Counted from the first letter of the stretch, positions 6,356 to 63,299 are shown. The stretch: DNA of 64,000 nucleotides from Amphiura filiformis (GCF_039555335.1 NC_092646.1:58138946-58202945), one strand, 5' to 3'. Notes: generated by a model from the letters alone, not told the origin. Made by a program: numbers and translations.

Positions 6356-6406
6356 TCCACAAAAGATATCTTGCTCCTTACAAGTCTTATTTTGGACTTG
6401 TTTCAG

Positions 6407-6701
6407 TCCGCCTTTTTGGTCTTTCAAGTGGTACCAAATACGGCGAAGTGGAAGTATACTACAATGGAGCTTGGGGTGCAGTGTGTGCTGACAACTGGGA
6501 TAAAAACGATGCAACTGTAGCATGTCGTCAACTTGGATTCTTTCCAGCGCCATTTGTGAGTTCTTATGGACAAGTAACTGGACCATTATCGATGACCAAT
6601 GTAATGTGTACTGGTACAGAAAAAAGTTTAGATGAATGCAGTCATGAAGGTGAACCTCAAACCTGTGCGTCAGCACGCCATGCATATATAGATTGCAATT
6701 A
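6407..6701 (+). CDS. Single-exon SRCR (scavenger receptor cysteine-rich) domain. The peptide is (I/V)RLFGLSSGTKYGEVEVYYNGAWGAVCADNWDKNDATVACRQLGFFPAPFVSSYGQVTGPLSMTNVMCTGTEKSLDECSHEGEPQTCASARHAYIDCN.
   Basis: The acceptor is tttggacttgtttcag|TC at 6401-6406 and the donor is TTA|GTAAGT at 6702-6707. The peptide has the canonical SRCR pattern (VRL..G, VEV..NG.WG.VC.D.WD..DA.VVCRQLG, C.G.E.SL..C). Entry phase is 1 and exit phase is 2. Confidence 0.85.
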
Positions 6702-17100: not shown

Positions 17101-17529
17101 GTGGTGAAAAAATGTTTTGCAAGCCCTGTGTTTAGTCTCCTCCGCAGCCAGTTTGGTTACGCACCCTTTGTGTAGAGGGAGCGGAACCTGGCTGCTGTGG
17201 AGACAAACTGCAAGGAAATACATTTGAACTTGTGGCATTATAGCGGCGACCATATTTGCATATGGTCATACTGAACATGTCGCTTTATGTTATGTCAAGT
17301 GAATGATAAAAGAAAATATTGTCGAACGCGCTCATAAATGCAAACATGATGGATATATGCAGGTACTCTGCATTTTGCTTCGTTGTTGCAACTCTATTGT
17401 TCAACTCGTGCGCTGGTGATGGCCCGTACCCGCACCTGGGATTGGGATTGGGATCGTTATCGAGGTAAGATTAAGGTGTCGTTCAACCACCTTTGAACAG
17501 TTTTTTTTTGTGGGGCCTGAGCCTGAGAG

Positions 17530-28346: not shown

Positions 28347-28454
28347 ATGAATGTGAATCCAACCCTTGTCAAAATGGTGGTTTTTGTATAGATGGTGTCA
28401 GCCAGTATAACTGTATCTGCCGAAGTGGATTTTCTGGAACAAGATGCATGACAA
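28347..28454 (+). CDS. Calcium-binding EGF-like domain exon of 108 bp in phase 1-1, encoding (D)[35 protein letters not shown].
   Basis: Acceptor tttaaatttttcag|AT and donor ACAA|GTAAGT. The peptide has the cbEGF signature D-x-D/N-E-C, six Cys and the Asn/Tyr hydroxylation context. The symmetric phase 1 is classical for EGF modules. Confidence 0.85.
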
Positions 28455-29764: not shown

Positions 29765-30237
29765 TGAGGGAGGCACAAGCGCATTATTGAAGACGAGAAA
29801 ATAATAATAATAATAATAATAAAAAACACGGAAAAATAGCTTTATATACCAAACAGCGCCGATTTACGCTCATTATGCTATCGTACCCAGCAAACACAAA
29901 ACGTTTTCGACATTATTCGCAAAGGTTAGAAAGGTTGCCAAAAAACGTTTAAATGTCGGGTTATAAAAAGGGTATAAAAAGGGTTATGAAACGGTTTCAT
30001 AACATTCAAAAACATTTTTTGAAAACTTTGCATAAAATATTTTCAATAAAATTTTGACATTTTAAATAAAATTAAAAACGTTTTTACCAAAACCACAACC
30101 CAAAATATAACCCGTTTAAAACGTTTTTAAAACGGTTTGTGTTTGCTGGGTTGTAGTAAACTTTATTTTAATGATCCATATCAATGAAAACTTGATAATA
30201 TGCTATAAAGTTGATTTAGATATGGTTATTACCACTT
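29765..30237 (+). repeat. Paralogous intron segment, matching the sequence immediately downstream of the 32504-32632 EGF exon but lacking the exon itself.
   Basis: 29775-29880 (acaagcgcattattgaagacgagaaaataataata...cacggaaaaatagc...ccgatttacgctcattatgctat) is ~85% identical to 32637-32757. 30195-30230 (aacttgataatatgctataaagttga) matches 32912-32940. Confidence 0.6.
29886..30150. mobile_element. MITE with TIRs cccagcaaacacaaaacg / cggtttgtgtttgctggg and an interior rich in aaacgttttt motifs. It sits where the paralogous unit at 32757 carries (TAG)n.
   Basis: Direct reading. Confidence 0.65.
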
Positions 30238-30578
30238 AAAGGAGTATTTCGTGATCCTAGCATCCTCTTTTTATGACATTTTTCAGTAGATACCCACGAA
30301 AAAGCTTATTTTCAAAATTTCAGTTGATTCCGATTTTGCGTTTGCGAGTTATGCATGATTATGTGTATTACACTGCTCCATAGACAATGTGTTGTAATTT
30401 CGTTCTGGTGCAGAACGAAATTCAAATTTGGCGATATTTTTTGCTAAACGAATTAATCTGCAAGGAATATTTGGTACATAAACATTATGTAGCCAGAGGT
30501 ATCCAGTGGTGTAAAAATCTCAACTTTTTTTGGAAAAGTGGGGAGATGAGGCTGTGGATCACGAAATGCCCCTTTAAG
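30238..30578. mobile_element. MITE, family F, copy 1, with TIRs aaaggagtatttcgtgatcc.agcatcctc / gaggctgtggatcacgaaatgcccctttaa.
   Basis: Copies at 53219-53557 (full) and 34243-34426 (partial) share more than 85% identity. Confidence 0.7.
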
Positions 30579-32503: not shown

Positions 32504-32632
32504 ATTTTTCAGATATAGATGAATGTGCTTCTGGTCCTTGTCTAAATGGTGGTAGATGTAGAGATGGTGTCAACCACTATAGCTGTATCTGTCCAAGTGG
32601 ATTTGCTGGAACAAGATGCTCTGTGGAACACG
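32504..32632 (+). CDS. Second calcium-binding EGF-like domain exon of 129 bp in phase 1-1, encoding (D)[39 protein letters not shown].
   Basis: Acceptor cctttaatttttcag|AT and donor ACACG|GTAATG. The exon is ~80% identical in nucleotide sequence to the 28347 exon. The 30 bp upstream of both acceptors (tatatga[g/c]agctaaatatccttta) is conserved, indicating tandem duplication of the exon unit. Confidence 0.85.
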
Positions 32633-34057: not shown

Positions 34058-34242
34058 GGGTACTGGTGGTGACTGTAATCTGAGATTACATATAGATTAA
34101 CCGGTGACTGCACTCCAGGGGTAGGGCGTACTTTAGCAACAAGTCAAGAGCGGCGCTACTATATCAAGAGCGGTACTACGAGCTACTATACGTTTGGCAA
34201 GCATATGGAAAGATATAGCTACAAAACGATTCTCTTATAAAC

Positions 34243-34426
34243 GTTCTGGTGCACCAGAACGAAATTCAAATTTCACGATATCTTTGCTAAACGAATTAAT
34301 CTGCAAGAAATATTTTGTACATAAACATTATGTAGCCAGAGGTTGCCAGTGATATAAAAATCTCAACTTTTTTTGAGAAAAGTGGGGAGATGAGGCTGTG
34401 GATCACGAAATGCCCCTTTAAATGAA
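34243..34426. mobile_element. MITE, family F, partial copy (right half).
   Basis: About 88% identity to 30395-30578. Confidence 0.6.
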
Positions 34427-34794
34427 AGAGCACACTTATATTGTCCATATACTACATTCATTTCAATGAACAATGGCCAATTCCCTTTAATTGCCAATCT
34501 TGTGCGAAATGTTAGTAGTTTCGCCTGTTTTATCATGCGGTTGTAAATTCAATGAACAATGACTTTGCTTAAAGAGCGCTTACAAATTCATATGTTTCTT
34601 TGGTAGTTGAGAATTAGTCGGTATACCATGCATTTCTCCTGTTGAAGAAGACCAGGAACCATTAAGCACGGTTTACGTGCTTCTCCATTAGTTAAGCTGT
34701 AATTTGTTCTTACCCATTAATATCTGAAATATTTTAATGACTCACTACTGTATAGACATGTAGGCTATGAACGTTGACGACCATGATCGCAGTA

Positions 34795-35419: not shown

Positions 35420-35671
35420 ATCTTGAAATCTGGAAATGTGATGATATATTCAGGACGTCTTCAACAGAATATGTAAGAGTATTTTTCCTTCGCGGACGCC
35501 AAGCACAAAATAACGTAGGTGCTAGTGGGGGATATCACAGGGAATTCAATCCACCATCGGGCAGCATCTTCAAAGCTGGGACAATAACATCCGTCCGATT
35601 TACAGTTACCGATGAAAACACAGTCAATATTTCGTGTACATTCAAAGTGCAAGTCCAACACGACCAAAGAG
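35420..35671 (+). CDS. Candidate internal coding exon of 252 bp in phase 1-1, with an open frame of 84 codons: (D)LEIWKCDDIFRTSSTEYVRVFFLRGRQAQNNVGASGGYHREFNPPSGSIFKAGTITSVRFTVTDENTVNISCTFKVQVQHDQR.
   Basis: Acceptor tttatattattgcag|AT and donor AGAG|GTAGTC. There is no stop in 84 codons of AT-rich sequence and no ATG, so the frame is absent from the ORF track. Phase 1 at both ends is compatible with the upstream EGF exon and the downstream 36966 exon. An alternative short exon would end at the GTAAGA at 35473. Confidence 0.5.
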
Positions 35672-36965
35672 GTAGTCTACTTTATATCTTATAATACAAA
35701 ATGCACACATCAAAGAAAGAGTAAATGTAAAGCATAATTATATTGCAGTGGGAGAGGTGTAAAATTGTACTGCATTGAAAACCCCCCATAAAAATCGTAC
35801 ATTATGGCTGCAAGGCTGACAGAGTACTATTTTCTAAATTCAAAACTTTTAAGTTTAAAACCTATCATGTTATATACCATTATTTAATCATTCGTATCTA
35901 AAGTATTTCAGAGTTTATTATAGTATGCAAACGGTATGCTTATTTACAGCAGGTCTCATTTTCTTAGCATATATAAAGCACCCGGTTAAAGTATTTACTA
36001 CTATTTCATTAGGACTGAGGAAGAAAGTGGACTTTTAGGTTCAAAAGATTTTAAAAAAAAACCAACACGATACGTGATAAAACATGATACTAAATTCGTA
36101 ACTTCATAATATGGATCTAAGGATAGAAAATGAGTGCTTCTGAGTCGAGAAGACCAAAAGTCGGCATTTTCCTTTTTAACGTATGCTTGCATGTTCGTTT
36201 TTTGCTTGATACCATCTTATATTCCCTCCAATAATTCGACAATACCTTTCTCAAATAGCTAGATCAAATTGTCCAAGTGCAATGTTGGTAATTCTAATCA
36301 GAGATTAATACGGTATCATGCAATTGAATACATGAATACAAAAGCCACCTAAGTCCATGCGAAGTTATTTTGAGAGAAAAACCCGTGTATCATTTTAATT
36401 CCTTCAGTTAGATTTACCTGGTCAATATGGTAAGTTTTACATGCAAATGAGTGGATTAACCTGTATTAGGTATGACGATTAGCATTTCAGGGACTTCGTG
36501 GGGTTCATTTTAAATTTTGGACTTTTTTGGTTTTTTGAATCATATACAAAGACAACAATGTTAGAATGAGATTACCACTAGTAAGATAATACAAAATAAA
36601 GCACACAGGTATGTATAATGTAGATAAGCATTCTGCCATGTAATATAAACCACACACTTTCCTTTATTAAACCCATTTTTTGTTCAAAAGTCATTCTCTA
36701 GCAATGAATGTGTTACAAGTGGACTTTTATACATACTGGATTTCAATCAATGTGTTACAAGACTCAAATCATGGAATTGGGTGATTCTTTCATACATGCT
36801 ATTTTTCACATGCCCAATAGACACAGAGAATGAATTTGAGTTGTTCTTTCATGCATATGACAGGCCTATGTATAGCAACAATTTCCCATGCTTAACTCAA
36901 TTTGGCCAAAGTATGGACTTAGGTGGCTTTTGTATTCATATATTCAATTGTTACATTTTTTACAG

Positions 36966-37323
36966 CATGTCACGTTGGACCCGAAATACCACCGAAAGAC
37001 GAATTTCCGTGGGCAGGCCTTACGCCACCTTACGGCTATAAGGGGATTCGAGGTGGATACGTTTACATTTTAGCAGCAGATTATTATACAATATATTGCA
37101 ATGGATCTGTATCTAGTTGGGACTATTTTGCAGAGACGTCCGCAGCTTTCCGAGCTATAGTATTTAGACCTGGTGGTAACCCGAAACAGTGGACCATTGT
37201 CGGTATCAATGACATTCCTCCTCATACAGCCAAATACCAGTATAAGTCTACATACGTTGTTCCGTACGGTGATCGCATATCGGTTGAAGCGGGTGACGTT
37301 ATCGGTGTCGCAGTCGGTGAAGC
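36966..37323 (+). CDS. 5' part of the terminal coding exon, entry phase 1: (A)CHVGPEIPPKDEFPWAGLTPPYGYKGIRGGYVYILAADYYTIYCNGSVSSWDYFAETSAAFRAIVFRPGGNPKQWTIVGINDIPPHTAKYQYKSTYVVPYGDRISVEAGDVIGVAVGEA. In the present sequence it ends after 3 extra codons at a TGA (37331-37333) supplied by the inserted MITE.
   Basis: Acceptor ttacattttttacag|CA at 36951-36965. The frame is open for 120 codons. The first-codon junction with exon 35420-35671 gives G+CA (Ala). The domain is not recognised and appears beta-rich. Confidence 0.6.
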
Positions 37324-37699
37324 CAGAGGATGATTTAAGCACTTCCCAGCAAGTCTTGCGGTTAGCACAGCTGTGTGAGTGAACATGACACCACTGCCCG
37401 CCCACTGCACACACACGTGCATGGTTAAATTTGAATTTGGATAGATATATTTACAATAAAAACACCTTCAAAAAGTTGGTCGATTTCACATTTTATGTTA
37501 TCTACAGAAGGTGTGAATTATCCTTCATGCATACATCACTTTACATCTGAAATCGACCAAGTAATAATGACACACGGGCAATTCTAAAACAACATCTTTT
37601 GCACAGAGTTCAATGGGATTTGAAAAGTAAAGTGGCAGTTGAAACTCTAGTGATAACACTTTTACAGTGCATGATGGGGCTTCCTTAAATCATCCTCTG
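37324..37699. mobile_element. MITE, family G, 376 bp, with 16-bp TIRs (cagaggatgatttaag / cttaaatcatcctctg) and a perfect 9-bp target-site duplication CGGTGAAGC (37315-37323 and 37700-37708). It is inserted inside the terminal coding exon.
   Basis: TIRs and TSD read directly. The second copy at 39519-39903 has its own perfect 9-bp TSD, ATATCCTCC. A 9-bp TSD suggests a Mutator/MULE- or Merlin-like origin. Confidence 0.85.
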
Positions 37700-37708
37700 C
37701 GGTGAAGC

Positions 37709-37934
37709 AGACAACCCGAAAATACGGAACACGTATATTACTGAAATGCACGTTGAAAGCGCTCCGTTGGCTGACCCTATGACCCTGACGCCAGGTGACA
37801 CCGTTACTACTAATCATGATTCGAATTATGTCTACGATGCAATATCAATTTCAGCCATAATTTCAAACACAGAAGCAGGTAATATAAATGGCAAGTCTAT
37901 TCTTCTAAACTGTGTACACGGTTGTTTGATGTGA
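37709..37934 (+). CDS. 3' part of the terminal exon, contiguous with 36966-37323 once the MITE and one TSD copy (385 bp) are removed: ...DNPKIRNTYITEMHVESAPLADPMTLTPGDTVTTNHDSNYVYDAISISAIISNTEAGNINGKSILLNCVHGCLM*.
   Basis: After removing 37324-37708 the reading frame continues without a stop into ORF-track entry 37746-37934, in the same frame (385 mod 3 = 1 is exactly compensated). The stop is at 37932-37934 and an AATAAA lies 73 bp downstream. Confidence 0.45.
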
Positions 37935-38006: not shown

Positions 38007-38012
38007 AATAAA
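38007..38012 (+). other. Candidate polyadenylation signal AATAAA, 73 bp downstream of the reconstructed stop codon.
   Basis: Read directly. The surroundings are AT-rich, so specificity is low. Confidence 0.3.
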
Positions 38013-39518
38013 CTGTATATACACATATATTTTGTAGCAATTTCTAACACTATATTTTCGTTTGTAGGCCTATATCAAATAATTTTTTCTACTTTTTGTG
38101 GTAATCATTTAATCCTATAAACTGTACATAAAATGTGTGTGCAAATTGATTTTACATATATTTTTCTTTAAATTAGCCAAATAATGACTTATACCTTACA
38201 TTTCACGATAAAAAGTTTTTTGAAAATTCCTTTGTCATTTGTTAATCTGTTTGCTGGTATTGTAAGTGTCTACCCCTTCCTGATGAAGATGCAAACAAGA
38301 TTTTAGATAAATAGCGCCATCATTGTTCAACTTTTCTTTAAAATGACTCGGTTTTACATACCATTAGTACTGGGTTATACAACCATGATATGGATTCTTT
38401 GGCACCAATAACATATAAAACAACACCAATATCAATAGAATAAGGCATAGAATAATATTTTTGATGCAAAATGACAATTTTCAGACCCCCCCCCCCTGGC
38501 CGAATAAGGTTTTTGGACGGCGCCTTCTCATTTTTTGGCCGATTTAAAAAAAAAAAAAAAGGTATTAGAATGCTCAGGAGACCATCCTGCATCAAATAAG
38601 CTTGAGCCCTAAGGAACCCGAAACATCACCATTTTTTTTACCCCTCTTTAACCGACACCTATACCATCAAACAACCGTGTGTAGCAACCAGATTAATTTG
38701 TGGTCAATGGGGCACACCGACACCGCCTGGCTAATAATTATTTGGTGGAGCAGAGACACTAAAATGAATACACGGGATCGATACACGTGAATTGCTATGC
38801 ACGATTTTGATATCAGACGAAAATCTTCGAATACTGGGTTAGAAATTGATGAATATCTCCCGCAAATGAATTTTCTCAAGAAACCAGATGTGGTCTCATA
38901 CACTTGAAAATACGTGTTGAACAGATATGATAGTCGCTAGAATGCGCTTTGAAAATTGGCCGTGCGCTTTGAACTCAAAATCTGACCATTTTATATTGCG
39001 TTGGTCCTGTAATACCCTGTATGGACTACAGCGTGTAGTACAGCTGCACTCACTGTAGGCAGTATAAAAGTCGATGACCATTGACCTCAATGGAGTATAC
39101 AAGCTTATTCACGCACAACCAAGATCAATAACCCGGCTATTGTGAGTAGCCTTAGTTATGTCCCTCGACTAATTATTAGTTCTAAAGAGCTTTAAAGGTT
39201 TGAACCAAATGGCTAATCGTGGCTGTGGATTCAACCTACCATGGCGATTCCTGCCATGAAGATATAGGGTCGATGACACTGTGTGGGGTTATTCCATTTC
39301 AAATCTAGATTGACGCAGAGACAAAACCACGTTCACTTGATGAAAGGGTATGAGGGCTATGATCAATATTCAATTATGCAAATGAATTATCGTCACAACA
39401 ATAATGTTTGAAACCCATACTGCCTTATGTAGCTAAATCTTCTACAGGAGTGTGGATTTCAAAAAGACTACTTTTATTTCGGGTGGTTTTCCGAAACCGC
39501 GAGATCTCCATATCCTCC

Positions 39519-39903
39519 CAGAGGATGATTTAAGGAAGCCCCATCTTGCACTGTAAAAGTGTTATCACGCGAGTTTCAAATGCCACTTAACTTCTGAAAT
39601 CGCATTGAAGTCTGTGCAAAAGATGTTGTTTTAGAATTGCCCGTGTGTCATTATTACTTGGTCGATTTCAGATCTAAAGTGATGCATGCATGAAGGATAA
39701 TTCACACCTTCTGTAGATAACATAAAATGTGAAATCGACTGGCATTTTGAATGTGTTTTATTGTAAATATATCAGTCCAAATTCAAATTTAACCATACAC
39801 GTTTATGCAGTGGTCCCGGGCAGTGGTGTCATTTTCACTCACACAGCTGCTAACCGCAAGTTGACCCCAGTGGAGTGCTGGGAAGTGCTTAAATCATCCT
39901 CTG
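39519..39903. mobile_element. MITE, family G, copy 2, 385 bp, inverted relative to copy 1, with a perfect 9-bp TSD ATATCCTCC (39510-39518 and 39904-39912).
   Basis: TIRs cagaggatgatttaag at 39519 and cttaaatcatcctctg at 39888. The interior is ~85% identical to 37324-37699 in reverse complement. Confidence 0.85.
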
Positions 39904-39919
39904 ATATCCTCCCTTCCTG

Positions 39920-42433: not shown

Positions 42434-42624
42434 GAATTGGGATATTCCATGTGAACTCTATACTCCCTATGGAAGACATGATCTTAATCTTCCACACTGG
42501 GAGCATGGATTTCAAATGGGGTTACCTGAATGGCTGACTCTATTTGAAATTCATACTCCCAGTGTGGAAGATTCAGGTCATGTCTTCCATATAGCGGGTG
42601 TATGGACTTCAACTGGAATAAGCT
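42434..42624. mobile_element. Palindromic MITE, family D. The consensus is ggctattccagttgaaatccatacaccccctatggaagacatgaccttaatcttccacacagggggtgtagatttcaaatggagtcacccattcaggtaaccccatttgaaattcacactccctgtgtggaagattaaggtcatgtcttccatagggggtgtatggatttcaactggaatagcc. This is copy D1.
   Basis: Matches the family consensus. ORF 42306-42650 is a read-through of this repeat. Confidence 0.8.
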
Positions 42625-42681
42625 ATTTGAACTGGTTAGTGACCACATAGACATTATATTTGTCAGGTGATGCAAAAATAG

Positions 42682-42876
42682 ATCTAACATTGCCTCAGAT
42701 TGGTCAATTATGTGATATCTTTACTTTAATCACCAATCAAAATGGAGCTTTGCAAATAATTCACCCCAATTTTTTTGCGTGGTTAAATTATTCTAACAAA
42801 GTTGCTGATTGGTCCAATTGATAATGAAAACTTCTTTTTGGCCAATCGGCAGGTAATTCTCATGGGGTTAAACTTC
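42682..42876. mobile_element. ~195-bp repeat, family E, with TIRs ctgccgat / atcggcag. It holds at least four CCAAT or ATTGG motifs (gattggtcaat, caccaatca, gctgattggtccaattg, ggccaatcgg). This is copy 1; copies 2 and 3 are at 45849-46050 and 58264-58460.
   Basis: The three copies are more than 90% identical. Confidence 0.7.
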
Positions 42877-43668
42877 ATAACTACATGTATATTTAAAATC
42901 TCAAAAAGAAAATTTTTGAAATGTTCCACTGAGGTTTATAGGAACGGGTCACATAATCTAGGCCAGCTTAATGCTCTTCGTGCTAGCCATATAAAAAGTC
43001 CAAGTTTTGAGATATTTTCTCAAAATATCAAGAACTATTTTGAGAACTACTGAACCAATACTAGGCTTGTTTGTACTCATTTCAATGCATTTTTCATGCT
43101 GATTCCAAATATGGTCATGAAAATTTACAATTTTGAAATTTATGAATTTTTTTAAAACTTGTCGTCTGCAGTCGACACCAGCGTGGAGAGAGTTAAAGGC
43201 AAATCACTACCAAATAAAGATGTCTAACAACAGTCACAAGGTATTAGATAATACTAAAACAAATCTTTATTAATGCTGCTGCAATTTAATAGAACTTATC
43301 TACAATTATTTAGCAATGCAAATGACAGTACATTATTGTACTATAAGAAAAAGTGACTATAATAAATCAAGGTACACTTCTATACGCTTTGGTGTCATGT
43401 TTTACAGTATATAGCACTATGGACCACAATGGCCTCATCCAAATGGCCTAGTTCAATAACCTCAATTAAACAATTGTATTCCAAAATTTGACCTCAAGTT
43501 GCAGATGAGTTTTTGTACCCAAATTTTCAAATGTCATTTAATGAATGTACAAATGTATTGAGGTTAAAGAACTGTGCCCTGATAGATGAGCATGTTGTGG
43601 ATCCTAGTGCAAGATTTTGCTAACATACTATTCTACTGACCCTTCACCGCCCTGTTCCACATGTAGAC

Positions 43669-44014: not shown

Positions 44015-44210
44015 GTGACTGTGTTGGGCAATTCCAGTTGAAATCCATCCACCCCCTATGGAAGATTTGGTCTTAATCTTCAACACAGGGAGTGTGAATT
44101 TCAAATGGGGTTACCTGAATGGGTGACTCCATTTGAAATCTACACTCCCTGTGTGGGAGATTAAGGTTGCATCTTTCACAGGGGGTGTATGGGTTTCACC
44201 TGGAATAGCC
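44015..44210. mobile_element. Family-D MITE, copy D2.
   Basis: Consensus match. Confidence 0.8.
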
Positions 44211-45167
44211 CAAAGTGTTTGTTTATTTGTTTGTGTATGTGCTTGTACTTTTATTGCATCCAATTGAAAGACTTTTCCTGGATTGCAAACTTTTATAATA
44301 TATAATTCAAGTGAAAAAATCAAAACAAAAAACACAACAACACCATCGTGATAATCTTAGCATACCTTGACCTACAAATGCAATAGAAATAATATCATAT
44401 TTGATACTAATTGGTAATATCAGTAACCATTTCCACTCCCATGACCACACTCATATTTTGCCCAATAAGCCTGAAAAAATGTGCATTTCTAGGGTTGATA
44501 CGCCAAATTTCCCATAAAAAGTACTGAATTTCTCATCATTTTCCATGTATTTCAAATACCACAAATTTTCCTGGAATCCACAATTTTTCCATAGACATGT
44601 TCTTTGTATGAAGCAGTAATTAAAAATGCCATATCTTTAAGCTTCTTCATGAACTTAAAAAACAGTTAGTACTTTTTTTGCTTGGGAGGCAGGTGTATAG
44701 GAATCAATCTGTTCCAGGCCTGTAGTCGTAATTCCTGGCTGTGGACCTGGGGCCCATTTCAATAAACTTTGACCCGTATCTCAAGTAAACATTCGCAAGT
44801 TACAAATACCCTTTTCCTTGAAGTAAATTTACAGAAGGTTCCCTGTAGTAAATCCCTAATATTACTTATGAAGTGTAACGTTCATAAGTTTATTGAAATG
44901 AACTTACGATAAGTTAGGATTGATTTTGAGACTTGCAAAGCTTTGTAAAGTTGAGTGAAATGGACTCCAGGTCTGCTCCAAACGTAAAATTACCTACAGA
45001 TGATGTCTTTGCAAGGAAGATATCTTACTCTTCCCAGCATTCTTTGCAACACAGTCACCTCATTTCATCAAATGACACTCCCAGATTCCCTTTGTTTTCA
45101 TTTTGAGAATCTACTGGTTAAATATGGTCTAATAGTCAAGAAATTTATTTTGTAAGATCAGGATTGA

Positions 45168-45848: not shown

Positions 45849-46050
45849 CTGCCGATCTAACATTGCCTCTAATTGGTCAATTATGTGATATCTTCACTTT
45901 AATCACCAATCAGAATGGAGCTTTGCAAATAATTCACCCCAATTTTTTTTGCGTGGTGAAATTATTCTAACAAAGTTGCTGATTGGTCCAATTGATAATG
46001 AAAACTTCTTTTTGGCCAATCGGCAGGTAATTCTCATGGGGTTAAACTTC
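45849..46050. mobile_element. Family-E repeat, copy 2.
   Basis: See 42682. Confidence 0.7.
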
Positions 46051-46271
46051 AATTTAAAGTCTGTGTTTGTTTGCGTTGTGTGAGCAATGAAATTTGCCCA
46101 TAACACACGCTAAGCGCTACGAGTGCAATTTGTAGTTCAATTTCTGTTTTTTGTAGAAAAATGGCAGCAGTAACCTATTTTGCTATGTGTGATCAACCAA
46201 TACATGGCAGATTTACCATAGCGTTAATTACGCACAGCACTATTCCGAGTTGGTTCTCTTTAGGCCTAATA

Positions 46272-46436
46272 GGCTATTCCAGTTGAAATCCATACACCCC
46301 TTATGGAAGACATGACCTTAATCTTCCACACAGGGGGTGTAGATTTCAAATAGAATCACCCATTCAGGTAACCCCATTTGAAATTCACTGCCCTTGTGTG
46401 GAAGATTAAGGTCATGTGGATTTCAACTGGAATATC
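46272..46436. mobile_element. Family-D MITE, copy D3.
   Basis: Consensus match. Confidence 0.8.
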
Positions 46437-46845
46437 CCTATCTCTTTGTACACACTAGGAACCTTTCCATGTACCTCATCACTAAAACGATCCAATTTTC
46501 AAATGTAAAATGCAAATTGTGAAAATATATTAATCTGCTTGTTAATTACATGTCTATTTTACAAAATGAGAGAATTTGAACTATTTTATGGCAACAAGTT
46601 GGATTGGACTATTTTGTTCTGAAACGCTATACCTTCTTTTGAGATTTTATATCTCCATAATAAGATGAACATTCACATGGGTTTTTAAGCAGCCTTTACC
46701 TTTTACTTGATTTAGATAATCATAAATTGACCATCTGTTCTTTTGTTGGATTTGAGTCACTATAGGCAATGTAACATTATTCTATCCCTACTCACTATTC
46801 CAGAAAAATACAGCACTAATTTTTTGATATTAAAATGGGGGGTAC

Positions 46846-47606
46846 TGGGGGCAATTCACCCAGTCAGAACTCTTGCTCCCGTGTTTCCCCCCAGAAAAAA
46901 ACGCAAAATTACGAAAATGTCAACTTTCTGCGGTAATTTTTACGCATAAAATTGGATGATTTTGCCCCCCCCATGAAATTCACTTTGCCCTCTCAATGCC
47001 CCCCCCCCCCAACAAAAATTCCTGGTGCCACCACTGGACACCCATATGTGTAGAGGGTTAAATACTGTTCAACACACATTATTGCGTATCAAGAGAAGTT
47101 TATAATGTTACAAAAACAAAATTTTGCGCCAAACTTTTACCATAAAATAGCCAAACGGACCAACTACAGGCCTGTGATTTTGTTTCTGTACATCCCTGTC
47201 ATCTAGTGCAAATATGATTTGGGGGGGGGGGGTACTGGCACGAGGGTGCAATTCACCCAGTCAGAACTCTTGCTCCCGTGTTTCCCCCCAGAAAAAAACG
47301 CAAAATTACGAAAATGTCAACTTTCTGTAATTTTTACATAAAATTGGATGATTTTGCCCCCCCATGAAATTCACTTTGCCCTCTCAATGCCCCCCCCCAA
47401 ACAAAAATTCCTGGTGCCACCACTGGACACCCATATGTGTAGAGGGTTAAATAATGTTCAACACACATTATTGCGTATCAAGAGAAGTTTATAATGTTAC
47501 AAAAAACAAAATTTTGCGCCAAACTTTTACCATAAAATAGCCAAACGGACCAACTACAGGCCTGTGATTTTGTTTCTGTACATCCCTGTCATCTAGTGCA
47601 AATATG
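46846..47606 (+). repeat. Tandem duplication of a ~390-bp segment (unit 1 at 46846-47220, unit 2 at 47221-47606). Each unit contains a family-B MITE remnant (right TIR cctggtgccaccactgg at 47021 and 47411).
   Basis: The two units are ~95% identical, and cagtcagaactcttgctcccgtgtttcccccc appears at 46861 and 47258. Confidence 0.8.
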
Positions 47607-47900: not shown

Positions 47901-48347
47901 AATTGATAGCACAAAATTGATTGACAGCCTGACAGGCCACTTGCAACAAAAATACACCAAAAATAATGATGTCACCCATAGCATATGAGACAATAGAAGC
48001 ACGGCAGCAGCTAAAAACAGTAACTTTGTTCTCATTCTTAAACACTTCAAGAGAGTGGTCATTGAGGGCACTATCAGCTGGGCAATCAGCTCAGTTTTCA
48101 TTTAGTTTTAGGCCTGTAGTAAAAAAAATCAGTGTTTTGTTTTTCTTAAAATTTGCACATTAATTATGTGCTTCAAACATCAAGTTGATGACACATTACG
48201 CATGCATGAGTCCTGCTCAAAATGTATGCTTAAACAAGATAATGCTGATTGCCACTGTTATTATTGCTATATTGCTTTTTACAAAAATAAAACTTACAAT
48301 TGCAATATGCAAAAAAAAATGCCTTTATCTAGTTTCTTTAACTAAGA

Positions 48348-48524
48348 GATTCCAGTTGAAATCCATACACTCTATGAAAGACATGACCTTAATCTTCCAC
48401 ACAGGGAGTGTGAATTTTAAATGGGGCTACCAGAGTGGGTGACTCCGTTTGAAATCTGTACCCCATGTGTGCAAGATTACTGTCATGTCTTCCATAGGGA
48501 GTATGGATTTCAACTGGAATAACC
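48348..48524. mobile_element. Family-D MITE, copy D4.
   Basis: Consensus match. Confidence 0.8.
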
Positions 48525-50430
48525 AAATAAACTTCTCTTATCTTCCAAAAACTCACAAATGTTTTACTGATTTAATATTCCAAACACTTTGTGTTCTTTT
48601 CAAACTGAATAATCTATCTCAAGCTGAATATCTCAAACTGAATATTCTTTTATAAGCAAACACAGTAAAATTTATTATATACTACAAATTATTCTTCAAT
48701 TTGGAATCATGTTCAAACTTTTTTGTAAGACCACTTAACCATTTAACAATTTAAAAATACATCATAACACTATCTTTGTACTCAAAGTTTGTACTACTTC
48801 TTGTTGGCTCACATTATTCTCATACCCAAATACAGAAGTAAAACAACACATATGTGAGTGATTTGAATACCCTGGGTATGATGCAACATAATCATGATAT
48901 AAATGAAGTAAAACGCTTAAAATTAGACCAAAACCATACTTCTGTGTGCTTATACTCAGCACTCTATATTTTATTATTTTTGATTCAGTATTACCTGGTA
49001 ACCCACAATCCGATTCATCAACAGCCAGCACGTTTCTACTGATGCTTAAAATAAGGGTTGTGGTGTGTACTGCAAATGCTTTCTTTGCATAACCCCCAAC
49101 TGCTTTTAAGGTGTATGATGGGATACATAAAATGTACATAAATAAAAGAAAACACCCAGCAACCGTTAACCATTGTGTTTCTACTGGCATCACGGCTTGG
49201 GCTGCAAAGTGCCAACACCGTATCGCTCCAAACTGATGCGTTTCCACTGAGCACATTAACCGGTAACTAAACCACATCAGCCGCCAACCTTTCACCAGTA
49301 GAAACATGCAGCTTGTTTTCTGAAATACCATTATGCAGCAGCATAGGAGGCTTTAAAGTGTCAATATTGGTAGCATATCATGTGATATTTACTGCATATG
49401 GTGTTCTTTTTTACTGGTGGGTGGGGTGGGGAAGTCAACTCCTTAAACTGCCACCAACCCCCTCAGATGTATTTCCTGATATATTTCTTTATTCTACTAT
49501 TCTTTACTCTCCCAACACAGGGGGTGGGGAGATTTTGGTAGGGGTGTATGGCGCAGAGTGCCTAACTAAGAACTGATTTCGGGCAAAATAGGGGTTTGAG
49601 GAACTGAAATTATGGGCAAATTATAGGTTGTGGAGTCAAAAATTTCCCATTTTTTTCTTCAAATTTCAGCTTAAAGAGCTACAATTGTCAGAGTTTGTGG
49701 CTCAAAGATATTGTATGAAATGTTTTTTGTATAATCGGGTCAAAAATCATTACATTACCCAAGGACCAACAGGGTCTAACTTAAAGCTCACATCAGCTTA
49801 TGCATAATGTCACTTGCACCCTGGGTATGAGAATACCAGTCAACTGAAAATCACACACCTGTAGCGACTCTCTATAAAGTTTTCTTTCTTTTTATGTAAC
49901 ATATTTTACACTTTCAATGTACATTCATTTTAACTAAACACTGTCATATAAATAAGTTAATGGTTTTTTTTAGAAAACAACAATTATTTACATATATGCA
50001 ACATTTATGTAACATGTACATTGTCTTTATCTTAAATAATAAATAATACAGGTTTGCCTTAATATCTGGTAACAGTGTGTAAACTCAATAACCCTGACAA
50101 TTATTCATATTAAACTACATGTAGTTTTTACAACTCATTTCAGATAAAAGTGAATGCAAACTTACTATAAGTAATACTAGAAAACAATACTAGAAAACCA
50201 TAATAAAGCGTAAAACTGTATTATTTGAAAAAGAACATTATAAATATAAACGTTATTCACTTATGCAGACTACCCAATTACCAAATCTTCCTTAAGTTTT
50301 TAGCACAACTGATTAAAGTTTTTGAAACAAATTAACGAGTAAAAAATATATGAATATAATTATCAACTTCAATGTGTTACCCTATAGTCCATATTTGTTG
50401 GCACTATTATGCAATTCTAAACTTCTATTT

Positions 50431-51290
50431 GCCATTCTATTTGAAATCCATACATCCCTATGGAAGACATGGCCTTAAAGGCCCATTCAGTGATTTGCTC
50501 ATCCGGACGATCGTAAAAATCATCAAAATTCAGATTTTGGTACCTTTGTAATTGGCATAGATGTGCTAACATAGCCTGCTAGTGGTTCGATTCGAAAACC
50601 GTGTATTTTAGACAAAATAAAGCATTTGCATGATTCTGGACTTTTGATACTGACAGTACAAAAGTCCGACTCGAGATCGAAAGAAGCTCACTCTACACCG
50701 TACCAACACGCGTTGCGTATTGTTTCTACTACTTATTACATCAGTAGCTACTATTTTAAACAAAATACACAATTTTAACTGTTTTTCATATTTGAATTGA
50801 CCGTTAGTTTGCCTCGGTGACCTTTAATTGCTTACTTTGTTTTCTACTACAAAAATTAAGCGTCTGTTTTAAATCAATTTAGACTCTACTTCCCCGTGTT
50901 AGAAACACTGGACTAGGAAGTTTTTCCAGTCGATTAAGTGGCGCACTGTACGAAAATCTCGATCTTCACGAGTCGATCTGAGTTGAGGGAGAAAAACTTT
51001 CTAAAACTTCTGTTTTTGACTAATTTGTCGATGTATTCAGGGGAAAAGTGGTTTAATGAAATTCTGTAGACTTATTCTTTGTTTCTAAGCAACTCTGACA
51101 AATTTCCATTTTTTTTAATGTTCCTGTGAAATCACTGAAAGGGCCTTTAATCTTGCACACAGGGAGTGTAGATTTCAAACGGAGTCATCCATTCAGGTAA
51201 CCCAATTTGAAATTCACACTCCTGTGTATAAGATTCAGGTCATGTCTTCCATAGGGGTGTATGGATTTCAACAGGAATCGCCTATTCTAT
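50431..51290. mobile_element. Family-D MITE, copy D5, split into 50431-50478 and 51148-51290 by a nested insertion.
   Basis: The left part ends ...gacatggccTTAA and the right part resumes TTAAtcttgcacacagggagtgtagatttc. The intact family sequence has a single ttaa at this point. Confidence 0.75.
50479..51147. mobile_element. Non-autonomous DNA transposon of 669 bp with 19-bp TIRs (aggcccattcagtgatttc / gaaatcactgaaagggcct), flanked by a TTAA target-site duplication. This is compatible with the piggyBac superfamily or another TTAA-specific one.
   Basis: TIRs and TTAA flanks read directly. A homologous 5' fragment lies at 19124-19250. Confidence 0.7.
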
Positions 51291-53187: not shown

Positions 53188-53218
53188 CTTGTTTAACTTA
53201 TTCTACAACTGCCTGTTT

Positions 53219-53557
53219 AAAGGAGTATTTCGTGATCCTTGCATCCTCTTTTTATGACATTTTTCAGTAGATATCCACGAAAAAAGCTTATTCCCAAAAT
53301 TTCAGTTGATCCCGATTTTGCGTTTGCGAGTTATGCATGATTATGTGTATTACACTGCTCCATAGACAATGTGTTGTAATTTCGTTCTGGTGCACCAGAA
53401 CGAAATTCAAATTTAGCGATATTTTTGCTCAACTAATTAATCTGCAAGAAATTTTGGTACATAAACATGTAGCCAGAGGTAGCCAGTGGTATAAAAATCT
53501 CAACTTTTTTTGAGAAATATGGGGGGATGAGGCTGTGGATCACGAAATGCCCTTTTA
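53219..53557. mobile_element. Family-F MITE, copy 2 (full length).
   Basis: About 88% identity to 30238-30578. Confidence 0.7.
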
Positions 53558-53847
53558 ATAATGAAAAATAAACACACACACACACAAAAATCCCCAAAAA
53601 CACCCCACTACACTAATAATAATTATACAATGCCTTTGAAAGAACACAAAATGCAATTTAAATATCGCCATTGTTTGCACTAATTAAGAACTGTTTTTGA
53701 TAAAACTAATAATAAGCTAACAATATTGATAAGTCTTGCAATAATTATTGGATTTTCATCAAACAAACACAATCATTTATTCCTGAGCTACAAAGGTAAT
53801 AATAATATACTAATCATGGGAAGTACTGGTCAGTCAAAATGCTATCG

Positions 53848-58096: not shown

Positions 58097-58263
58097 AATC
58101 AATACCATTACTAGTTTAGCTTAAAATGCAAGTGGGGTAAAATAACATCAATATTTTACAAGAAATTTTGTTGATATTTGAATTTCCCTCTAACTAGTTT
58201 TGATCACAATGCTTCATCAATCATTTGGTTTATTCCTTTAGCTGTTAACGCCCTGAGCACTAC

Positions 58264-58460
58264 CTGCTGATCTAACATCGCCTCTGATTGGTCAATTACA
58301 TGATATCTTCACTTTAATCACCAATCAGAATGGAGCTTTGCAAATAATTCACCCCAATTTTTTTGTGTGGTGAAATTATTCTAACAATGTGGCTGATTGG
58401 TCCAATTGATAATGAAAACTCCTTTTTGACCAATAGGCAGGTAGTTCTCATAGGGTTAAG
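58264..58460. mobile_element. Family-E repeat, copy 3.
   Basis: See 42682. Confidence 0.7.
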
Positions 58461-60335: not shown

Positions 60336-60490
60336 TACAAAGTTATGAACTTTTAATATGTCCATTTTCATGTTTTTTTGTTATTATATGTTTTTGTTAA
60401 TTTTTGTTTTGTATTTTGGCGTAAATCTCAATTTCATTATTGCAGACTTTGGTTTGAAATTTAGATCAGATTATGTCACATATTACATTG

Positions 60491-60672
60491 CACTATTCCT
60501 GTTGAAATCCACACACCCCCTAGCTGTGGTAGACATGGCCTAAATCTCCCACACAGGGGGTGTAGATTTCAGATGAAGTCCCATTTAGGCAACCCCATAT
60601 GAAATTCACACTCCCTGTGAGGAAAATAAAATCCATGTCTTCCAAGAGGGTGTATTGATTTCAACTGGATTT
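60491..60672. mobile_element. Family-D MITE, copy D11.
   Basis: Consensus match. Confidence 0.75.
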
Positions 60673-60984
60673 GCCCATTATGATGGAAATAGATGCTGAT
60701 TTCATATCCATCTCTGACTCGATATTAACTAGAATACTGAAAATAATCAAAGTGCCTTTTTCTTTCTTCTAAGTATCTAAATATATACATGGGAAATACT
60801 GCCATCGATTAAGAAAATGGTTATGATATTATAATATATATAGTTACCAAACAGTTATTTGATGAATGGCTACTTATAATTATACTTCAAATATAGAAAA
60901 TAGAATTACAAATGAAAACTTCAATAATAACATAGCTATGCATAGTTGTCACTCTCAATCAGTTCAATACGTCTCCTTCTACAC

Positions 60985-61166
60985 TGGGCTGTACCAGTTT
61001 AAATACATACAACCTCTGTTGAAGACATGACGTCAATCTGCCACACAGGGGGTGTAGATTTCAAATGGAGTCACCCATTCAGGTAACCCCATTTGAAATT
61101 CATGCTGTGTGGGAGATTGAGGTTATGTCTTCCATAGGGAGTATGGATTTCAACTGGAATAGCACT
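60985..61166. mobile_element. Family-D MITE, copy D12.
   Basis: Consensus match. Confidence 0.75.
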
Positions 61167-62243
61167 ATGGCAACATGGGATGCAATTAAACAAAATAAGT
61201 CATTTCTCAAACAAAGTTTCATTTTTGTTTTCATTTATCATTGTCCAGTTTATTACAAGCAATAATATGCTGAAAATCCCTTCAAATTTATTTTCCTCTG
61301 AAAATATGATTACAGACATGAAAATTCCTTCATCCAGACTGGAAATTCAACATTTCAGGTAAGTCTTTAATTTGATTATTTGCTGAAAACAATCATATAT
61401 GAAACAATTGGACTACTTTTGAACACAACTGAGAGAAAATTTTTTAGTATTTCCTTCGACCAGTGGTCAACTTTTCAAGACTGTTGTCCGTCTCTTCTGT
61501 GTTTACACTTGTGTAAACGCTCGGCGCACAGCGCAGACCACAGAAGTAATAAAAAAATTATTTTCGACAAAAAACTTTGCACTGGTTTGATCTCCTCAAA
61601 CAAGCTGATGAGTCCATTCTTACTAAAATGGACTTTGATCAAAAGTCTTGTTCAGATTTTTTTAAAAGTATTTTTAATTGGTTTCAGCAAAATGATAATG
61701 AACAAATCTCAGGAAATCTGGTATATCCAATTTTTATGGGATTTTCAAAAAAATTTAGCATATGTGAAATGGACATGAATGTTATAAAAAATGTCATACT
61801 GGCTAGGTTGTGTCTGATACCCTCTGACATAGCCTAATACTAGCCCAGTGTGATACCTCAACGGCTAGCCCAATAGAGCAGATGCACAACAATTGCATCA
61901 CTATTTAGCAAACTGAGACATCCATTCAAATGAAAAATGCAACTTTTAAGTAAATACTGTCAGAAGGATTAGGGGGCTAAGGATTGATCCCTGTGGAACT
62001 GCAATTGCTTGAAATGACTTCTTTTGTTTAAATGCATCACATATCGGCATATAGGGTCACTTGGGGATATACATGAATTGTACACATTGCTTTATGATAA
62101 GAACACACACCTCACATACTAGTTATTAAGGAATCAAGTAACACAATATACGCTGGGTCTTAAATTGAATCCAATTGCTCCAAAGTTTCTGTTTTATGAC
62201 ACGTAGTCAACTGAATTTCGTAATGGGCTAATCAATTCTAAGC

Positions 62244-62636: not shown

Positions 62637-62812
62637 GCGAGAATTGAAATCCATCCACCCCTGTGGAAGACATGACCTTAATCTCCCACACAATGGGTGT
62701 AGATTTCAAATGGAGTCACCCATTCAGGTAATCCCATTTGAAATTCACACGCCCTGTGTGGAAGATTAGGATGTGTCTTCCACAGGGGTGTGTTGATTTC
62801 AACTGGAATATC
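62637..62812. mobile_element. Family-D MITE, copy D13, abutting the fold-back element.
   Basis: Consensus match. Confidence 0.75.
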
Positions 62813-63299
62813 CCATTCAAGGCAATAAGTTCCTCTTCCCATACTTCAAACAATGTCCTATTGTTATGATGTAAATTGATTCCTCTCTGGGTACAGGTGG
62901 AAATACATCAGTGCACGATGGAGTGTATAAAAGTTTGTCCTGGTTGGCAAAGAACTACGGTCCAAAAAGAGACGATTGAAAATTAAATTTCATTCTTTCT
63001 GCCCCTATTATACTGCAAAATATGTGTCCAAGAGGGTAGTCGGACACCACCCCAGGTTTCAACAATGCTACACTCCATAAAACTGCTGCAGCTGCATGTT
63101 TCCATAAAAGGAATGAACTATAATTGATGAAATCCAAATATTCCAGAGTAAACCACCATCAAGATAACTAGCTGCAGTATGCTACTTTCATGGTGTGTTG
63201 CTTTTAGCAGAAAAATATAGATGGGCCAAAACTTGATTGTCTTAAATTCACAATATTTGCAGCATGCTGAATGAATTCACAGGGTGGTGTGGCCGAGTC

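Follow-up and report, generated by a model that had tools for sequence, protein, structure and literature searches.

What becomes of a coding exon when a transposable element lands in it, and can the exon that existed before be recovered from the sequence that is left? This question is raised by a gene of the brittle star Amphiura filiformis that encodes the "uncharacterized protein" XP_072018549.1 and lies in a stretch of 64,000 nt (GCF_039555335.1, NC_092646.1:58138946-58202945), hereafter the window, in which positions are counted from the first letter. Exon 5 of this gene is split by a 376-bp miniature inverted-repeat transposable element (MITE), termed copy A, and the annotated protein ends at a stop codon inside the element. 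We estimate at roughly 85% the probability that a non-autonomous cut-and-paste MITE inserted in codon 119 of the domain encoded by exon 5 and truncated this C-terminal domain, with loss of function for the domain as the most probable outcome.

The split exon and the inserted element

Exon 5 opens at 36966 in phase 1, directly after the acceptor ttttacag, and its first complete codon is at 36968. The frame from this codon reads CHVGPEIPPKDEF...GDVIGVAVGE-A-R-G-stop. The features of the exon and of the element, with its terminal inverted repeats (TIRs) and target-site duplication (TSD), are listed below.

36966-37323, plus strand: 5' part of exon 5, encoding domain residues 1-118 and two bases of Ala-119; corresponds to XP_072018549.1 residues 177-295 with 100% identity
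37315-37323, plus strand: left TSD copy, 9 bp, CGGTGAAGC
37324-37699, plus strand: MITE copy A, 376 bp, with TIRs and a flanking 9-bp TSD, without a long open reading frame (ORF)
37324-37351 and 37672-37699: TIRs of copy A, with the ends CAGAGGATGATTTAAG...CTTAAATCATCCTCTG
37331-37333, plus strand: MITE-borne in-frame TGA inside the left TIR, the stop of the annotated protein
37455-37460, plus strand: AATAAA inside copy A, about 120 nt 3' of the MITE-borne stop
37700-37708, plus strand: right TSD copy, 9 bp, CGGTGAAGC, a perfect match to the left copy
37709-37878, plus strand: 3' part of the ancestral exon, from the third base of Ala-119 to Ala-175 and the first base of Gly-176
37878|37879, plus strand: candidate phase-1 donor CAG|GTAATA, at a position conserved in homologue DNA
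37879-37934, plus strand: open tail of 17 codons, NINGKSILLNCVHGCLM, ending with TGA at 37932-37934; intron read-through or, alternatively, the genuine C-terminus
38007-38012, plus strand: AATAAA, 73 nt after the 37934 stop, a possible poly(A) signal in the case of a terminal exon

The TIRs of copy A match perfectly over the outer 16 nt and at 82% over 28 nt. Stops occur in all three forward frames of the MITE, which leaves it without coding capacity, and no ORF of at least 50 aa was found inside either of the two MITE copies in the window, the longest ones listed merely overlapping an end. Folded as single-stranded DNA, copy A was hairpin-like and surpassed 100 of 100 shuffled sequences (z = -3.7). 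When the 19-nt terminus was searched for with at most three mismatches, its only occurrences in the window were the four element ends, two per copy, and the shuffled sequence gave no match.

Self-BLAST of the window returned two copies of the element. The second one, copy B, and its flanks are located as follows.

39519-39903, minus strand: MITE copy B, 385 bp
39510-39518 and 39904-39912: TSD of copy B, on the plus strand ATATCCTCC

The two copies are 89% identical by BLAST and 91% identical over ungapped aligned sites. Copy B is bordered by a perfect 9-bp TSD as well (GGAGGATAT on the minus strand), which is unlike that of copy A. Because the second copy bears its own, different TSD, copies A and B belong to a mobile family that generates 9-bp target duplications. 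TIRs, a constant TSD length in independent copies, small size and the lack of a transposase ORF are all present, as is characteristic of MITEs. Relative to copy A, copy B carries a 12-bp insertion near the left TIR. It is located 2.2 kb from copy A; the 37934 stop is 1.6 kb upstream of it, and no coding potential could be recognised in the surrounding sequence. No autonomous partner element was seen in the 64-kb window. A scan of metagenome contigs for the MITE terminus gave two 19-mer matches: L001, which was due to chance, and L002, which was unreadable.

The left TIR carries an in-frame TGA, and hence both the ORF and the RefSeq model end with ...GVAVGEARG. The insertion point is in codon 119 of the exon 5 domain, where Ala-119 is encoded by GCC at 37322-37324; the codon becomes GCA once 385 bp are removed. 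Deleting 37324-37708, that is, the element and one TSD copy, joins ...GVAVGEA to DNPKIRNTYITEMHVESAPLAD..., and the predicted empty-site junction is GTCGGTGAAGC|AGACAACCCG. After the junction, the reconstructed frame reads DNPKIRNTYITEMHVESAPLADPMTLTPGDTVTTNHDSNYVYDAISISAIISNTEAGNINGKSILLNCVHGCLM and runs to the TGA at 37932-37934. The MITE-borne stop thus removes 74 residues, and the remaining 57 domain codons are intact downstream of the MITE in another frame. The original prediction had described a 376-bp MITE with TIRs and a perfect 9-bp TSD, a TGA within the TIR, a 385-bp removal that restores the frame up to the stop at 37932, and an AATAAA 73 bp further on. The coordinates, the direct repeat and the inverted termini bear out this description, and each of these sequence statements is correct. 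So is the addition of R-G-stop to the truncated product, for which the earlier count of ~75 lost residues becomes 74.

In the mechanism that we propose, the host protein is a mosaic of two EGF domains, an HYR-like domain and an unnamed jelly-roll domain at the C-terminus. The MITE would have been mobilised in trans by a transposase making 9-bp staggered cuts, the repair of which would have duplicated CGGTGAAGC, and the left TIR would then supply the in-frame TGA three codons into the insert. Judging by its position, the AATAAA at 37455-37460 could cause the truncated transcript to be polyadenylated prematurely.

The ancestral domain and its gene

An exhaustive HMMER search with the 193 reconstructed residues against 1.84 billion representatives returned 114 homologues at E < 0.001, of which more than 20 aligned without a break between residues ~40 and ~171-178, crossing the junction at residue 119. 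The residues that follow the junction are conserved (EADNP in the query vs ANDNP, ESNDP, SPNNP and KTDNP), and the motifs D-P, L-PG, TT and S-x-SA further downstream are common to the alignment. On a family profile built from 25 homologues, with the query left out, the reconstruction scored 141.3 bits (profile positions 30-168) vs 105.3 bits for the annotated truncated product. Four wrong-frame joins, shifted by one or two bases either way, scored 105-108 bits, meaning no gain, and the downstream part alone reached 23.1 bits (E 1.5e-8). A six-frame scan of the window with the family hidden Markov model (HMM), covering 1664 open stretches, matched only the two exon halves, at 36923-37330 (E 2.7e-31) and 37689-37931 (E 8e-7), in different frames. 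In a leave-one-out test for decay, the downstream half scored 19.8 bits vs a median of 16.2 bits for the 25 intact homologues.

In a homologue found on an ENA contig, the whole domain is one uninterrupted exon, and hence the MITE does not lie within an old intron. We regard the exact ancestral junction as shown; only an empty-site allele could make the reconstruction more secure. The claim that the MITE inserted in coding sequence, and that its precise excision restores the ancestral frame, is strongly supported by the homologues, the second copy and the end of the RefSeq protein. A word-indexed protein search of 5.8 billion clusters found only XP_072018549.1 as a close match, with no empty-site allele or transcript-derived ORF on record. 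The exactly predictable junction would be a handy marker for DNA-transposon polymorphism or activity in this genome.

The annotated gene comprises five exons.

17419-17464, plus strand: exon 1 as annotated, ATG at 17419, MARTRTWDWDWDRYR, no signal peptide
28347-28454, plus strand: exon 2, EGF domain, phase 1-1
32513-32632, plus strand: exon 3, EGF domain, phase 1-1
35420-35671, plus strand: exon 4, HYR-like domain, phase 1-1
36966-37333, plus strand: exon 5 as annotated

Joined together, these exons reproduce XP_072018549.1 through its final RG; the introns are all GT-AG and the junctions all phase 1. Over residues 1-119 of the reconstruction, XP_072018549.1 matches with 100% identity; its C-terminus, ...GVAVGEARG, corresponds to the stop inside the MITE. 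The entry is a transposon-truncated product that shows only about two-thirds of the domain, and it merits a flag. Pfam recognised two EGF domains and one HYR domain in the gene and nothing in the last exon. A Pfam scan of the reconstructed domain and eight homologues gave no family for the domain itself and matched only its neighbours (EGF, HYR, CUB, SRCR and similar). The domain family, of ~140 residues and found in marine invertebrates, is unnamed and has no Pfam model. This locus brings to light a widespread extracellular domain that has a lectin-like jelly-roll fold and is encoded as a phase 1-1 exon module; A. filiformis itself has many paralogues of the family.

AlphaFold, run with the alignment, modelled the reconstructed domain as an 11-strand jelly-roll sandwich, with a predicted local distance difference test score (pLDDT) of 83.2 and a predicted template modelling score (pTM) of 0.81. 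The model rests on this run, as prediction from the single sequence gave a pLDDT of 31 and was useless. Six strands precede residue 119 and five follow it, at residues 126-132, 134-138, 150-152, 160-164 and 166-171. Confidence stayed at 80-96 across residues 101-150, which span the junction. Because the sandwich loses five of its 11 strands, the model suggests that the truncated domain should not fold. The allele on this haplotype is most probably a loss-of-function allele for that domain.

The original prediction called the exon terminal, which is unproven as stated. Every exon of the gene is a phase 1-1 module, and exon 5 without the MITE, taken up to the GT at 37879, has 528 nt, or exactly 176 codons. 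The homologue on the ENA contig has an acceptor, ...cctttag|TG TGT, just before the first Cys and a donor, CCAG|GTAAGT, aligned with G176 of the window. In the protein alignment, the G176 column is near-invariant, with K, N, M, E or T as the next residue, matching the translated donors G|GTAAG, G|GTAAT, G|GTATG and G|GTGAG. We also observed that many of the 160-190-aa metagenome "proteins" are in fact single exons of eukaryotes, called as if they were bacterial ORFs and starting in the upstream intron. Such read-through calls produce a spurious near-invariant Gly, an artefact that marks the intron position (seen in the alignment and in locus L003, 3001-3531). The 17-residue tail has no homology and a pLDDT below 50; it may be intron read-through. 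What agrees with a terminal exon is the possible poly(A) signal at 38007-38012 and the paralogue XP_072044362.1 (EGF-EGF-domain), which terminates just past the domain. No downstream exon was found after 37934 by tblastn with 116 mosaic proteins, by the six-frame HMM scan or by an EGF regular expression. From the phase and the conserved donor, the ancestral exon 5 was probably internal. If so, the MITE stop would invite nonsense-mediated decay.

Alternative explanations and the age of the insertion

Several observations count against the truncating MITE insertion as explanation. The signals for the superfamily of the element disagree, with the 9-bp TSD fitting Mutator, Rehavkus or Merlin and the CAGAG terminus being hAT-like; cryptic in-frame GT...AG pairs could splice the MITE out; and the annotated N-terminus has no signal peptide, so that the gene is perhaps mis-modelled or was already defective. 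The splice pairs would allow the MITE to be a nascent, introner-like intron that is spliced from the mRNA, leaving the domain complete and the gene functional. The in-frame, stop-free pairs are 37317-37707 (391 nt, 191 aa) and 37317-37710 (394 nt, 190 aa), others being more destructive, and their products would lose only Gly-Glu or Gly-Glu-Ala. Their donor, TCG|GTGAAG, is in the left TSD copy (37317), the AG is in or just after the right one (37707 or 37710), and the pyrimidine-rich right TIR, TCATCCTCTG, precedes the acceptor. Transposon-derived introns have been reported in the sea urchin Strongylocentrotus purpuratus (PMC12130899). The RefSeq model, however, places its stop inside the MITE and has no intron at this position. 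The splice sites are weak: position -2 of the donor GTGAAG is C, and a purine-rich stretch, GCGGTGAAG, directly precedes the acceptor AG. The element has no terminal GT or AG of its own, and copy B is in no recognisable exon. The downstream half, which shows no decay, would suit a spliced MITE, but it is equally explained by a young or polymorphic insertion. An intron of exactly 385 bp with GT-AG ends was also considered and rejected: the register that starts with GT ends with CG, and the register that ends with AG starts with CC. Taken together, we find a nascent intron quite improbable. If it were true, transposon-driven intron gain would have been caught happening in an animal, within an otherwise single-exon domain.

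The missing signal peptide bears on another explanation, in which the MITE struck a gene that was decaying as a pseudogene beforehand, or a redundant member of a large family, and was a neutral hit rather than the disabling event. The annotated start, MARTRTWDWDWDRYR, lacks a signal peptide despite the extracellular modules that follow, and a good signal-peptide ORF sits in another frame of the same exon. Redundancy is likely because A. filiformis has so many paralogues. Against a prior defect, exons 2-5 are intact, with canonical splice sites and a consistent phase 1, and each half of the split exon reaches a score typical of undamaged members of the family. The odd N-terminus, moreover, may be an annotation choice. 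A signal peptide of textbook type, MMDICRYSAFCFVVATLLFNSCA, is encoded at 17346-17415 (plus strand), overlapping the annotated first exon in the other frame, and an alternative phase-1 donor, CTG|GTGATG at 17415|17416, joins it in frame to the EGF exon. Use of this donor would yield a complete secreted protein, and we judge a wrongly picked donor in the annotation no less likely than a lesion. The RefSeq N-terminus is probably mis-modelled, unless the exon has a frameshift. We consider a gene that was defective or dispensable beforehand unlikely. Coincidence and assembly error, finally, are excluded. Only 1.8% of the positions in the window begin 74 open codons, the downstream half matches the family profile alone, and the score rises only with the join in the correct frame. 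The earlier judgement that the in-frame reconstruction did not arise by chance is thereby upheld. Nor is a TIR element flanked by a perfectly duplicated target something that an assembler would create, and the element is present twice with different TSDs. The truncating MITE insertion is the explanation that we retain.

The insertion had also been called recent. In favour of this, the TSD is perfect and the downstream half is undecayed; the claim is nevertheless unproven, as the two MITE copies differ by a Kimura two-parameter (K2P) distance of 0.094 and by three indels. With the published neutral rate for A. filiformis of 1.885e-9 substitutions/site/year (PMC11310086), and with the divergence split evenly, this distance corresponds to ~25 million years per lineage. 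By a rough estimate, a neutral stretch of 56 codons would have a 15-30% chance of staying open over ~25 million years. At this rate, an age of some 20 million years is compatible with the 56 codons being intact. The data allow an age anywhere from that of a segregating polymorphism up to some tens of millions of years. A burst of DNA transposons 10-15 million years ago and a heterozygosity of 3.22% have been reported for this species (PMC11310086), and because of the latter a polymorphic insertion is plausible.

Other repeats were observed in the window. At the left edge, self-BLAST gave repeated offset matches of 70-82% identity, such as a satellite-like tandem array repeating every ~100 bp would produce. 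A dispersed repeat of ~180 bp is present in at least eight copies in the right half of the window, on both strands, with 80-88% identity. There are two further families, of ~198 bp (copies 92-97% identical) and ~342 bp (copies 90-93%), the younger pairs of which are more alike than the two MITE copies. In addition, a segment of ~380 bp is directly duplicated in tandem with 95% identity, and an SRCR-like exon lies upstream; its identity with the SRCR domains of P0004, a neurotrypsin-like protein of A. filiformis, and of P0051 is 43-45%.

1-1375: satellite-like array
6394-6651, plus strand: SRCR-like exon
42437-42620, 44025-44216, 46272-46441, 48346-48527, 51147-51282, 60485-60677, 60985-61168, 62644-62815: copies of the ~180-bp repeat
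42681-42877, 45854-46051, 58258-58459; also 30236-30577, 53217-53558, 34242-34427: copies of the further repeat families
46837-47216 and 47227-47606: direct tandem duplication

The element among known transposons

Rehavkus elements have a TSD of 9 bp and Merlin elements one of 8-9 bp, whereas hAT elements have a TSD of 8 bp and typically a CAGAG terminus, as in hobo, Hermes and Tol2. The 9-bp TSD of both copies accordingly fits Rehavkus (within Mutator/Mutator-like elements, MULE) and Merlin. The termini of the copies begin with CAGAG, which is hAT-like, but the TSD length is unlike that of hAT. An 8-bp TSD of the hAT type was rejected, both copies showing 9 bp: the ninth base differs between the copies yet matches its own partner, and therefore it cannot belong to the element. 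The likeness to Mutator, a comparison by TSD length, consists in the 9-bp TSD of both brittle-star copies, which agrees with the length known for Mutator/MULE (9 bp; range 8-11 bp). For the maize Mu elements, TSDs of 9 bp are likewise reported (PMC2774946).

As in introners, a TIR element is found in a coding exon, and the duplicated target happens to carry a GT and an AG, at weak sites, that would permit removal in frame. Unlike in introners, the annotation terminates in the element, and the element lacks intrinsic splice signals.

MITEs in coding exons are known from plants (mPing, Stowaway and Tourist) and from animals (MITEs derived from hAT, MULE or P elements). The present case differs from these in its ophiuroid host and in that the element is classed here by its structure; no individual exon-disrupting MITE in ophiuroids was described in the literature searched. 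In other respects, the resemblance is close. Known exonic insertions involve elements of the same small size, without coding capacity, with TIRs, a fixed TSD and more than one copy. They cause the same premature stop, and the frame returns when the element and one TSD are removed. In this comparison, exon 5 is an ordinary transposon-disrupted exon, and the understanding of transposon insertion is unchanged by it.
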